Below are positions 26,899 to 31,315 of a stretch of 64,000 nt of DNA, piece by piece. This DNA is from Psilocybe cubensis (taxonomy: Eukaryota). How positions within the stretch are numbered: position 1 is the first letter of the stretch; every line of letters begins with the position of its first letter. Under the pieces are notes generated by a model. That model worked only from the letters and a program-made list of their open reading frames with translations. It searched no databases and was not told the origin of the DNA. The position numbers and the translations under genes are program-made. Location: the NCBI GenBank assembly GCA_017499595.2, contig CM039005.1, forward strand, positions 2,976,001 through 3,040,000, given 5' to 3'.

Positions 26899-27247
26899 AT
26901 GATGTTAGGACGAGTTGCTCTTTTACTGTGTATGTGCTGGCTTGCACCCTTTTTGTTCGGTGAGCATCATCGTAATTTATCTGCATTGAGGGTCACTGAA
27001 ATATTCGTGATAGCTCTTCCTCTGACGTCCCTTCCAGGTGGTACGATATGGCACGAAATGATAACTTTAGCCACTAATCTAATGCATCCCCAAGACCTTG
27101 GGTTTTCCAAAAGAAACGTTGGTACGTAAATATTGTGCTGCATATATACCTCTTTTTAAACCGATTTATGTTATTAAAGATTGCCCCTTTCCACGTGGCA
27201 TCGAAGGGATAATTCACAGTTCAGATTGCGAGCCGACTGAGAATTGA
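26899..27247 (+). CDS. Small secreted prepropeptide A (60 aa), candidate RiPP or peptide precursor; exons 26899-26959, 27014-27040, 27095-27121, 27180-27247
   Basis: MMLGRVALLLCMCWLAPFLFALPLTSLPGDLGFSKR-NVDCPFPRGIEGIIHSSDCEPTEN*. Three GT-AG phase-1 introns at the same positions as in the paralog at 30958. Confidence 0.85.
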
Positions 27248-27801
27248 TGGGCATGGAGAGTAAGGTTACCAATGTCTGGCAGAGTATACTACTCTAGCTC
27301 ATCAATATATTTTTAAGGTGTACAGTGGTCCTACCATTCCATGACGTTCAAGTTGGAATTAGAGGTTCATGCATTACTTAACGTTTTAATCAATCTATCG
27401 CACAAGACAACAACGTTGGCCAAATGTTACACAGTAAAATCTCTCACCCCTACGTCTCTCGGGCACCAGAGATAATATTCGGAGGTTTTGAAGCTTTACT
27501 CTGGGTTTCGAATGTCAAAAAGCGACAAAAGAATACACTTATCTAACTATATTTATTGTTCGAGAATGTGGACAATGGAAGGCCTAGCCGACCTGGACCA
27601 AAGCTATTTGTGGAAGCTTGTCCTTCCGAATGGCGAACCAACTAGACTTCACACAGAATAGAATTTACCAATCATAAAGTAGATAAGAAAGACCATTGAT
27701 TCCACAACTACTACGCACAGAGATAAGATATATCTCGACATCAGTCCTTCTTAGCTAACTCGACACCAAGTCATGAAAATTACGTATCAATGATATCGAG
27801 G

Positions 27802-28565
27802 CTAGACAGCCGTAAACACGAAGCGCTGGCTGATATCTCCATTAGCACCAAAAATCTTAACCCATGCCTGTAGATGGAGTAAATCATCGGAATATGTAAT
27901 AATTGGACGAGTTACCCACCCCTGGCTCTGCCGTCCACACTTCATCCGCGACTGGATTCTTGATCTACAAAACCATCAGCGACTGGTGTCGATGTAGAGA
28001 ATTTACACTTACGATATATGTTCCTCCGCCTGCGCATTGAATTGCAAAGGCAACGGGGGATTCACCCCAGGAAGTGTAAGGCTGGAGAACACCCTGAGGA
28101 GACAGTAAGAATCAATTAACCAAGAGGAGAATATAAGCTACGTACCCCAAAGACAAGTGTAAGTACCGGTGCGTTGTCGGCAGCATTGGTGATATAATAC
28201 GCAGATTGCGGCGCGGGGGTGATAGACCACTATACCACGAAACATTCAACGATTAAACAAGTCACATTAATACATACAACACTTACAACACCCGACAGTC
28301 CTACGGGTTCCTCCTCCAGATTGGTTATCGCAGGAGGAGAGTGTGAACGGTGAAAGGGACGTAATTTCCACCCCGTCTCGGCCAGCGAAATTGTATATTG
28401 TCCTGGAGTAAGTACGGCACACTAGGAATGTAAGTGAGTATGATGAGGTCATGTTTGCTAATAATATAACATAATTACCCCTTGACCACTTTCCAAAGGT
28501 GATGCCGCGGTGATGAGGGACTGTATAGCCACAAGCGCAGGGAGGTAGAGTGCGTTAAAGCGCAT
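27802..28565 (-). CDS. Secreted beta-trefoil-like protein (ricin-B lectin or fungal protease-inhibitor type), copy 1; 6 exons
   Basis: MRFNALYLPALVAIQSLITAASPLESGQG|CAVLTPGQYTISL...|WSITPAPQSAYYITN...|...FAIQCAGGGTYI|IKNPVADEVWTAEPG|AWVKIFGANGDISQRFVFTAV*. The LxPGxYxI start and QRFxF end fit a beta-trefoil. Confidence 0.8.
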
Positions 28566-30130
28566 TGTTAGCGAGTTTGAGGGATTTTCACTAATCGAGA
28601 CTTGTTTGCAATGACTCGTAGAGTGCATGGCAACCCTTAATATACTTCGTATTCAAGGCACTGCGAAATCATGTACGCTAGTCCTACCACGATGGCTACT
28701 CCAGAGATGGCTACTCCGCAAAGGCTTAGTACAAGAAGGTTGGGCTTCTGCTGGGAAAGAATAGACATAAAGATGTTGAGTACACTTCGCCAAGATGTTT
28801 TACGATGCATAGTGGATGGTCTCCGTGTATTATGATCGTCGGTATTGAGGCGGGTCATAAAACGCCATCAAAGAATAAAGCCATTGTCGCGACAGTGTTG
28901 ATCATTTAGTAACACGAGACCGGTACGCATCTGTATTGACTTTATCTGCAAGTCAATTGATGAGGGCTCGGCACGCCGATGTCTGGATTTTTCGTCACTC
29001 CGAGTCCCATAGGCGGAAGAGAAAATAGCAAAGCGTTGATGAAGAGAGCATTTCAGATCGCAAGGAAAGTTGGTGAGGATAAGCAGGGGTGAAAAATAGC
29101 TCGTCAAATGGATGCGTGGGAATGCAACGACCTAGCCTCGCGGAGTCGCGATTGGTCATTTTAACAACTCCTTCTTAATTGAAACTCCGACATATGCCGA
29201 GATCTGTTGATTGCCGGTGGGATACAATGAGCCGATATGCCGCTCGTTCCCTGGTTTTTCATGGCATTGAGGTTTCATTTCACCAATTCCTTGCCTCCAT
29301 ACATCACAGCACGCATCACCGGCTGCACCAGATGGCGCCAACTTCAATTGGGTTCAACGCATCTACAATTTCAGGGTGGCCACATCACGCCCGACAACTT
29401 TCCAGCACCAGTCGAATCAACGCTGATGGATGCAACGCGAAGCACGTACCATGTCGCAGTCCAACCTCGTATCGGCCTCCGGTGTCAACAAGTTAGCAAT
29501 GCGCTCGAGGAGGTATGCGCCTAAAATGAGGGAAGACGAGGTGGAGGCGGGGCAGCTGAAGAAGGGTTAAGGTTGAAACTATTAGCAACATCAAAATGGG
29601 TGGGGAAGTCATTGGGGACTTCAGGCATGTAACCCAATTCTGGCACGCCTACCTGCAGTGATCATACACCCTTCCATGGAAAGCAAACAGTGGCACTCAC
29701 CGTTTATGCACATCGAAGCAAGTCCGATGTTTTTTGTCTATTATCAAACATTTTCACGTATTCTTACCTTTGATTGTAGTGCCAGTTTTTGAAGGCGACA
29801 TTTTTCGAGACGATGCGCTGAGTATTGAGCGGTGAATCTGACAGGTAACACCCGCTGGAACTCTGCATAACTGGATACCCCGATGCAGCCCATCGAGATT
29901 GGCTGAAATGGAGTGCACAGGAATCTTTACATGGACGCCACACAACGTGTTGACAATGCATCTATCGTACCGCTACGCATATATCTCCAGACCTCGATTG
30001 CCCACAGCGCTCATGGCATCATCCTCGGTGGGGTCGCATGATTGTTCCCACACTCGCTCGGCGGTGAAGTTATTTCAAGTAGCTCAAAGCGTATGGACGA
30101 CACCTGCCGGACGTACACATCACCATTGTG

Positions 30131-30500
30131 TATTCCAGCCCATGTTTGTCTTTCCTCTTATAAGGGAATTTGAATTCTATCGACGACAACAGTCAGGGTC
30201 TGTCCTTCGTTGCTGTTCTTCGTTTTACAACGTCAAATTTGGAACCCTCAAGAGTTGGTCGATTGTGTACATCTTCGTAAGACACATCTAACATCATCTC
30301 GGGAGGACGCTCATACAGGAATATTGAGGGTTCCCGTCCTTCACCCAGACTCCCAGGATCAAATGGGTTGACTTGTAAGACAGTACTCAATCAGCCACGT
30401 TCAAAAAGCCTGAGAGGTGAGTTTATTGTCTTGATGATCTCATTAATTTAGTCTTATTTCCCATCTTTAAACTTGTTTCAAACTGCTGGCGTATGACTGG
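30131..30500 (+). pseudogene. Decayed 3' fragment of a third proline iminopeptidase copy
   Basis: ggaaccctcaagagttggtcgattgtgtacat...tcaaatgggttgacttgtaagacagtactca...cctgagaggtgagtt aligns with ~26086-26280 but carries indels and a stop. The 5' part is not recognisable. Confidence 0.75.
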
Positions 30501-30957
30501 GTCTGTTAAAATACATCTAGCTGCGGAGATATTTAAAATTGATTGAACTATGTGGAATAGACACAGTTGGAGGTTTGTTCGGGTACCGGGATGCGCCCGG
30601 AGGCGTTGTCTGTCTGAAATTTCATTGCAGCGTAATTACGCTTGCCCTGTAAGCATGACGCCAGATTCCATTGTCTCGGGAATGCTTCCTTTGTAATATT
30701 AGAGAAAGTACAGTGTATTACATAGAGAAGAGGTTCGTTTTTATACAAAGGTGTTAAATACCCACGATATTTTTGCCAAAAACGAGGTTTCGGAAATAGC
30801 ATTATAATCCATCATTGAACGTACTGTCACCGAAACAGATACGAGTGCTTATTCCTGGAATTGATACAGACTACCTTAAGCAGGAGCAGGAATGGCAATA
30901 TATAATCCTGGCTATGAGTTCGGTCCAGAGACTCCTCGAAGACGTTTTGTGACTACA

Positions 30958-31315
30958 ATGTTGAAGCGCATCATTACCTTTACCCTGTTTGTGTGCTGGC
31001 TTGCGCCAGCCTTAATTGGTAAATTTACTTCCTAAATTTCTGGATTTAACGAGTGCTGAAGCAGTGTGATAGCTAGCCCAGTAGTTGTCACTCCAGGAGG
31101 TAACTAATATCAAACAATTATCGACATTTTTCCATTAACTTGCTACGTCCAAAGGTCCTGGTTTGTCCAAACGCGAAACTGGTGCGAGAATTTTATCTCG
31201 AGAAATATGAGTGCCTTTTAATGTAGTCATTCTTGTAGATTGTCCGTTTCCACGCGGTGTTGAAGGCATACCTCAAAGTGACGAATGCTCGCCTGAGGAT
31301 CCTACTGAGGGTTAG
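30958..31315 (+). CDS. Small secreted prepropeptide B (63 aa), candidate RiPP or peptide precursor; exons 30958-31018, 31073-31099, 31155-31181, 31239-31315
   Basis: MLKRIITFTLFVCWLAPALIASPVVVTPGGPGLSKR-ETDCPFPRGVEGIPQSDECSPEDPTEG*. First three exons are 61, 27 and 27 nt, identical in size to peptide A. Confidence 0.85.

Follow-up and report, generated by a model that had tools for sequence, protein, structure and literature searches.

A 64,000-nucleotide stretch of the Psilocybe cubensis genome (GenBank assembly GCA_017499595.2, contig CM039005.1, positions 2,976,001 to 3,040,000 of the forward strand), hereafter the window, in whose own coordinates all positions are given, contains three small genes that are new as a family by sequence, all of them hidden microexon genes. 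These genes, referred to as genes 1, 2 and 3, are clustered within 8.5 kb, and each encodes the hexapeptide DCPFPR in the last of four short coding exons. They are probably best explained as a small family of secretory prepropeptides, restricted to one lineage, that would yield short, acidic disulfide peptides, and in which the invariant Cys-Pro-Phe-Pro-Arg would serve as a constrained functional element.

Gene 1, on the plus strand, was spliced by script from its coordinates and gives a precursor of 60 amino acids (aa) from four coding exons. Exon 1 (26899-26959, 61 nt) carries the start codon and a putative signal peptide, and its final base opens a split Ala codon. Exon 2 (27014-27040, 27 nt) lies in the pro-region, exon 3 (27095-27121, 27 nt) ends the pro-region with SKR followed by two residues, and exon 4 (27180-27259, coding to 27247) encodes the DCPFPR core and an acidic tail, closed by a TGA stop codon at 27245-27247 and followed by 12 nt of 3′ untranslated region (UTR). 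The introns between them (26960-27013, 54 nt; 27041-27094, 54 nt; 27122-27179, 58 nt) are all of the GT..AG type. Gene 2, on the same strand and spliced in the same way, gives a 63-aa precursor from four predicted coding exons: exon 1 (30958-31018, 61 nt, putative signal peptide), exon 2 (31073-31099, 27 nt), exon 3 (31155-31181, 27 nt, which holds SKR) and the coding part of exon 4 (31239-31315), with the DCPFPR core and a TAG stop codon at 31313-31315. Its coding introns measure 54, 55 and 57 nt and are likewise all GT..AG. An initial annotation of this DNA had proposed two hidden genes with products of 60 and 63 aa, exon sizes of 61/27/27, a KR site and a common core, all of which was reproduced by reading the window and by scripted splicing. 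The four-exon structure that it assigned to them holds for the coding exons, but gene 1 has five exons owing to an intron in the 3′ UTR, and a further member of the family, on the minus strand and more divergent in sequence, escaped the count of two genes. In the 64-kb window, DCPFPRG written as degenerate DNA matches at three sites against 0.07 expected, a number (≥3) that none of 100 shuffles reached; the third of these sites belongs to the additional gene.

Evidence for expression comes from contigs of four sequencing runs, X1 to X4, which were compared with window positions 26500-35900. This DNA occurs in five runs, of which X1 and X2 are taken as RNA on a guess and X3-X5 contain 85-94% of sampled words. 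One 367-nt contig of X1 (depth 22.2) skips all three predicted introns of gene 1 at their exact GT..AG borders, beginning with the joint 26959->27014. The same contig skips a further GT..AG intron of 58 nt at 27260-27317 (joint 27259->27318), which starts 12 nt past the stop codon and separates exon 4 from a non-coding fifth exon in the 3′ UTR spanning at least 27318-27471. Contigs of the DNA-like runs X3 and X4 are colinear with the genome over gene 1, with no differing letters, and the joined form is therefore limited to the RNA-like run X1. X1 contigs also show GT/GC..AG or CT..AC joints in two neighbouring genes, which makes three genes including gene 1, and this run behaves as cDNA. Gene 1 is thus transcribed and spliced as predicted. 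The start of its contig, placed at about 26881 from the piece lengths, lies ~35 nt past the sequence TATATAA at 26840-26846. This TATA box of gene 1 and that of gene 2 (30899-30905), both on the plus strand, are each found inside a shared motif, GCAATATATAAT, 59 nt ahead of the ATG. Neither X1 nor X2 covers gene 2 or gene 3, a result that carries no information on their expression. By analogy with gene 1, the 3′-UTR intron is probably a family feature, as GTAAGC occurs 12-13 nt past the stop codon, together with a plausible acceptor, in both of the other genes. The putative intron of gene 2 (31328-31377, plus strand) would start 12 nt past the stop codon, as in gene 1, and that of gene 3 (35019-35066, minus strand) 13 nt past it, so that genes 2 and 3 are predicted to share the non-coding fifth exon.

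The third paralogue, gene 3, occupies positions 35424-35080 of the minus strand and gives a 62-aa product. Its coding exons comprise exon 1 (35364-35424, 61 nt, putative signal peptide), exon 2 (35281-35313, 33 nt), exon 3 (35200-35229, 30 nt), which ends in IRDVN and lacks KR, and the coding part of exon 4 (35080-35144), in which DCPFPRR precedes a tail with three further Cys and a TAG stop codon at 35082-35080. The introns, of 50, 51 and 55 nt, are canonical. The product has four Cys residues in all, IR rather than KR stands ahead of the core, and the sole dibasic site is the RR within the core itself. Lacking KR and containing four Cys, gene 3 shows that a scheme of KR plus one disulfide loop is not general to the family. 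Short-word tblastn with the exon-1 and exon-4 peptides found no fourth member in the window. Two ‘CPFRR’ strings, at 6313 (plus strand) and 54886 (minus strand), were rejected as out-of-frame readings inside another duplicated gene pair, and ‘DCPRPR’ at 31519-31536, with no Cys downstream, was treated as chance.

The protein alignment has a single block without any difference among the three genes, DCPFPR. Its codons differ among the genes at third positions only, in four of the six, with no change of amino acid. Beyond this block gene 3 differs throughout, and genes 1 and 2, which also keep G-x-E-G-I past it, differ after five more residues. Rates between genes 1 and 2, estimated by the Nei-Gojobori method (NG86), gave a non-synonymous rate (dN) of 0.42 and a synonymous rate (dS) of 1.13 overall, dN of 0.56 and dS of 1.20 for the signal and pro-region, and dN of 0.23 and dS of 1.0 from the core onward. 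Within an 11-codon core, 6.0 synonymous differences over 7.8 sites (dS not calculable) compare with 1.0 non-synonymous difference over 25.2 sites; the corresponding Fisher p of 1.7e-4 is optimistic, since the block was picked after being seen. The gene 1 and gene 2 introns are 46-55% identical, and introns and UTRs together 43-58% in global alignment, approximately the level of unrelated sequence. Of the divergence of introns and signal sequences claimed initially, the former thus extends to chance identity, but the latter is incomplete, as CWLAP is common to exon 1 of both genes. All nine coding introns of the family keep GT..AG and phase, and the start codon, the stop codon and the signal-like exon 1 are intact in all three genes. 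The retention of exon sizes, phases and core while their surroundings were randomised argues for a translated, constrained product. Synonymous changes dominate the core both between genes 1 and 2 and in the three-gene codon comparison, in agreement with the purifying selection suggested initially, and the core is constrained at the protein level.

These observations bear on the possibility that the loci are transcribed but untranslated, or are decaying relics, whose reading frame is an accident of recent duplication. Such an explanation would fit the confinement of transcript evidence to gene 1, the failure of searches to find a homologue and the presence nearby of a decayed hydrolase fragment in a spliced transcript without a long open reading frame (ORF), but it would have to accommodate synonymous sites near saturation (dS 1.13) alongside core amino acids kept in three genes, as well as the intactness of every coding intron, start codon, stop codon and signal-like exon. 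It is considered very improbable. Sequence differences of X3 and X4 that were listed inside the three gene models, with seventeen further ones unlisted, all fall in introns or UTRs: 31200, 31219 and 31236 in intron 3 of gene 2, 31374 in its putative 3′-UTR intron, and 35044 and 35058 in the putative 3′-UTR intron of gene 3. Another, at 35447, lies upstream of gene 3. The absence of listed differences from coding parts is a weak hint only. A separate observation is that the three differences at 31200-31236 fall within 37 nt, are present in both X3 and X4, and represent 3 of the 4-5 found on a 4075-nt contig.

The predicted precursors have the organization of small secreted prepropeptides. Exon 1 encodes 20 residues in each gene, with one or two basic residues followed by a 12-residue window of mean Kyte-Doolittle hydropathy 2.3-2.6. 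Residue 21 is Ala in all three genes, its codon divided by intron 1, and LP or SP follows. By these simple rules alone (basic residues, hydropathy and Ala at -1), exon 1 of all three genes fits a putative signal peptide, as had been proposed, with the signal-peptidase site at the boundary of exons 1 and 2. A short, fast-evolving pro-region would be encoded by exons 2 and 3; in genes 1 and 2 it has 14 residues, the last three being SKR, with two more residues before the core, and in gene 3 it is longer. The SKR of genes 1 and 2 would be a Kex2-type site, two residues ahead of the invariant DCPFPR, and its Arg is encoded by AGA in gene 1 and by CGC in gene 2. Exon 4 would then supply the conserved core and the acidic tail. 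If the tails are taken to begin two residues ahead of the core, those of genes 1, 2 and 3 have 24, 27 and 23 residues, net charges of -4, -7 and -2, and two, two and four Cys residues, respectively. The products may accordingly be pictured as extracellular peptides of ~21-27 residues with net charge -2 to -7, containing one disulfide in the case of genes 1 and 2 and up to two in that of gene 3. We infer secretion for the family and, for genes 1 and 2, Kex2 cleavage, mature sizes of 24 and 27 aa and a single disulfide loop of 16 residues.

The position of the invariant block is also compatible with a different role, in which DCPFPR would be a processing or recognition signal and a cut after its Arg (RR in gene 3) would either free the variable acidic C-terminal tail, as the diversifying bioactive part, or nick the precursor to a two-chain form linked by disulfide. 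Families of secreted peptides often combine a conserved precursor with a mature part that varies. Here DCPFPR alone is identical in all three genes while the sequence past it diverges, and gene 3, which has no KR upstream, has a Kex2-type RR exactly at this point. In genes 1 and 2, however, the site is monobasic (PR, then G) and would be a poor Kex2 site; these genes also retain G-x-E-G-I past the block, and their upstream SKR is kept through different Arg codons. Moreover, the Cys of the block pairs most simply with a downstream Cys. A role as processing signal is therefore regarded as unlikely. In Agaricomycetes, KEX2 and KEX1 are documented to process the precursors of secreted peptides, among them the antimicrobial peptide copsin, which is cleaved by KEX2 (PMC9769878).

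Genes 1-3 are absent from public annotation, since a library of 5.8 billion proteins includes the products of both of the 165-aa genes that flank gene 2 but, among its proteins of 11-95 aa, no match to exon 4; the consecutive locus tags of these two neighbours bracket gene 2. Among library proteins of 11-95 aa, none shared three 5-mers with an alignment of the three exon-4 peptides, and among those of 29-95 aa, none did so with a 54-aa stop-to-stop ORF that includes exon 4. A 22-position profile found nothing at E <= 0.001 among 1.84 billion representatives, a threshold hardly reachable for a profile so short. Pfam returned no families for the read-through ORFs 26899-27129 and 27083-27244, the ESM Atlas gave no usable match to residues 33-54, and a PDB sequence profile search gave none at E <= 10. 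In metagenome DNA, the pattern DCPF-P-[R/S]-G-x-E-G matched seven loci, but these were dismissed as chance, as none has a second Cys at the family spacing; four of the seven reach a stop codon before any further Cys, three of them within the motif itself. The initial failure to recognise the family was thus repeated across protein libraries, Pfam, PDB sequences, the ESM Atlas and metagenome DNA. In the literature searched, CPFPRG, DCPFPR and CPFPRR occur only as coincidental strings (a human CTGF fragment; a spurious string), and a search of work on Psilocybe peptides and on peptides made by ribosomes and modified after translation (RiPPs) turned up nothing on genes 1-3. These empty searches are weak evidence, as the core has 22 residues, such genes are rarely annotated and no fungal genome collection was scanned.

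Genes 1 and 2 probably arose with a tandem duplication that also copied a gene for a beta-trefoil secreted protein. The duplicated segments, 26171-28941 and 30313-33001, are offset by ~4.05 kb, and the unit consists of the 3′ end of a hydrolase gene, the peptide gene and, on the opposite strand, a gene of six exons that encodes a secreted protein of 165 aa. The first copy of the latter, neighbour A (27805-28565, minus strand), has a spliced translation equal to library protein P0005. Its paralogue, neighbour B (31853-32614, minus strand), has a spliced translation identical to P0001 and is found in high-depth contigs of the RNA-like runs X1 and X2, in which its five introns are seen. Their source lists P0005 and P0001 as Psilocybe cubensis JR316_0009406 and JR316_0009407, both hypothetical proteins, and the UniRef name of P0001 is ‘Ricin B lectin domain-containing’. 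Relatives at 67-84% identity occur in Psilocybe cyanescens and Agrocybe pediades. The Pfam family RicinB_lectin_2 falls below cut-off in all four proteins tested, and the Agrocybe protein also has a weak match to Inhibitor_I66 (E 0.006). The 165-aa neighbours are probably beta-trefoil proteins; a structural model, with a mean predicted local distance difference test score (pLDDT) of 53.2, is too poor to choose between lectin and protease inhibitor, and a PDB sequence search found nothing. Neighbours A and B have diverged by a dS of 0.55 and a dN of 0.10, with introns 71% identical (190/269 aligned columns) and internal exons 80% identical (277/346). Within the duplication, the beta-trefoil halves are 78% identical as compared with 43-62% for the peptide-gene halves. 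This unequal divergence indicates either that gene conversion homogenised the beta-trefoil genes or that the peptide genes are older.

Upstream of gene 1 lie two tandem, paralogous genes for hydrolases of the proline-iminopeptidase family, copy 1 at 22268-23390 and copy 2 at 25434-26281, both on the plus strand, whose exon pieces match TIGR01250 with E values from 2.9e-5 to 9e-17. These hydrolases are unlikely processing enzymes, as the protein of copy 1 enters the family profile at its very start, with no signal sequence ahead. An X1 transcript without a long ORF covers 29266-30764 (plus strand), with introns at 29718-29779 (GC..AG) and 30277-30328 (GT..AG), and, at 30313-30423, retains a remnant of the upstream hydrolase gene's final exon, 77% identical to it and interrupted by an in-frame stop codon. 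Decay of a gene copy without loss of transcription is the probable explanation of this locus. A But2-like ORF is also present upstream of gene 1, and an HsbA-like gene (33300-34133, minus strand) on the downstream side. Just downstream of gene 3, the repeat-rich segment 34450-35000 is covered 2-6 times as deeply as the sequence on either side in X3 and X4, both DNA-like, with many loose ends and odd joints, and is a multi-copy or variable element. Farther away, a transporter of the major facilitator superfamily (MFS) is followed by a nitrate-reductase-type gene with Mo-co dimerisation, cytochrome b5, FAD and NAD domains (together 45365-51026, plus strand), an ordinary nitrate assimilation pair. 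The window also contains MFS, carboxylesterase and ankyrin genes, and an inverted pair of clearly similar intron-containing genes ~49 kb apart, at 5850-6450 (plus strand) and 54750-55400 (minus strand).

Other neighbours raise the question of whether the peptides are tailored. Two divergent ORFs, 20519-21001 (minus strand) and 21388-21888 (plus strand), match UstYa/DUF3328 in Pfam above cut-off (E 1.2e-11 and 8.4e-12) at a distance of ~5-6 kb from gene 1. Next to gene 3 is a Gfo/Idh/MocA-Gal80-like oxidoreductase (35846-36400), followed beyond it by a piece of an O-methyltransferase (37725-38192). Genes 1-3 might therefore encode RiPP precursors whose core, after entry into the endoplasmic reticulum (ER) and Kex2 cleavage, is tailored by the UstYa/DUF3328 oxidases, with perhaps a contribution from the O-methyltransferase or the oxidoreductase. 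The dikaritins provide a precedent in that their precursors likewise have a signal peptide and Kex2 sites (PMC7329392; PMC9769878), and acalitide is a known disulfide-bridged fungal RiPP with a small precursor and one peptidase (PMC10840396). The precursors predicted here nevertheless have no repeated cores, contain one KR in genes 1 and 2 and none in gene 3, and lack Tyr in the core. No six-frame ORF of at least 40 aa in the window contains a 4-mer three or more times, and two window ORFs with three KR sites are not precursor-like. A DUF3328 gene is found within 15 genes of only 6.1% of basidiomycete genes for Kex2-processed repeat proteins (KEPs) (PMC7329392). The neighbourhood is mixed, with nitrate reductase, MFS, carboxylesterase and ankyrin genes, and the adjacent proline-iminopeptidase-family hydrolases would be in the wrong compartment, judged from the lack of a signal sequence in copy 1. 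Tailoring as a RiPP is accordingly judged quite unlikely, and secretory prepropeptides of disulfide peptides remain the preferred reading.

Comparison with known systems places the genes close to several classes of fungal peptides. KEPs are defined by several repeated cores separated by Kex2 sites (PMC7329392), and the KEP tables of that study include types for Psilocybe. Genes 1-3 resemble KEPs and the ustiloxin-type dikaritins (PMC7329392; PMC9769878) in having an ER signal peptide by heuristics, KR ahead of the core in genes 1 and 2, and small secreted products. A DUF3328/UstYa gene is also present in the neighbourhood, in the form of the two ORFs above the Pfam cut-off. On the other hand, the peptide genes are single-core, with multiplicity arising via gene duplication, their core contains Cys and no Tyr, and gene 3 has no KR before it. 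The genes would thus work like Kex2-type propeptides but are not KEPs, whose defining repeated cores they lack. Peptides of the copsin and plectasin type are 40-57 residues long and cationic, contain many Cys (6-12) and adopt a defensin-type fold. The predicted products, at ~21-27 residues with 2, 2 and 4 Cys and charges of -4, -7 and -2, are neither Cys-rich nor cationic, and the peptide genes have no Pfam or PDB sequence match. The likeness to plectasin and to copsin of Coprinopsis lies in the succession of signal peptide, pro-region, KR and Cys-stabilised peptide, copsin being KEX2-cleaved (PMC9769878).

Acalitide (PMC10840396) is a roughly 30-residue disulfide-bridged peptide derived from the 81-aa precursor AcaA, with a gene for the AcaB peptidase in the genome of the producer. 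A small precursor and a predicted disulfide peptide are shared with the present genes. Acalitide is, however, cyclised head to tail and has two disulfides (PMC10840396), unlike the structure proposed here, and the hydrolases by gene 1 belong to the proline-iminopeptidase family and, judged from copy 1, lack a signal sequence. The cycloamanide/MSDIN precursors (PMC10840396) have no signal peptide, an MSDIN leader and a Pro-flanked core cut by prolyl oligopeptidase B. The peptide genes, in contrast, have a signal-like exon 1 and no MSDIN leader, and no prolyl oligopeptidase was found among the stop-to-stop ORFs scanned in the window, a partial view in which 36 of 37 ORFs had 75 aa or more. The broadest likeness is to the small secreted proteins (SSPs) of Agaricomycetes, which are short, carry a signal peptide and Cys, evolve fast, occur in tandem clusters with secreted-protein genes and are often unannotated. 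Genes 1-3 have the length, signal peptide and Cys of this class, which is operational and not a family, and stand out within it by their very small size, microexon structure and one invariant hexapeptide.

Several points weigh against a family of secreted disulfide peptides. RNA support comes from a single contig of X1, a run guessed to be RNA, and the peptides are predictions from the genes. The signal peptide call comes from simple heuristics. Release by Kex2 ahead of the core would not be family-wide, as gene 3 lacks the upstream KR, and the predicted products are acidic, unlike typical antimicrobial peptides. Finally, no relative was found beyond the window in the searches described. As to function, our guess would be an extracellular defence or signalling peptide whose Pro-Phe-Pro-Arg is bound by a partner, for example as a substrate mimic or inhibitor loop of an Arg-specific protease. 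An extended picture, which we think has little chance of being correct as a whole, is an unseen class of mushroom peptides, single-core, microexon-encoded, acidic and disulfide-cyclised, with an invariant Pro-Phe-Pro-Arg loop, perhaps tailored by UstYa, acting in defence or signalling together with the co-duplicated, lectin- or protease-inhibitor-like beta-trefoil proteins, and confined to the genus Psilocybe and its kin.

Genes of the kind described here, very short and divided into several exons, some as small as 27 nt, slip past ORF scans and standard gene callers. If their products are real secreted peptides, they would add to the small list of ribosomal peptides from mushroom-forming fungi. 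Concrete hypotheses on how such peptides may be modified, and on a possible role in defence, follow from the presence of UstYa genes close by and of beta-trefoil genes in the duplicated unit.

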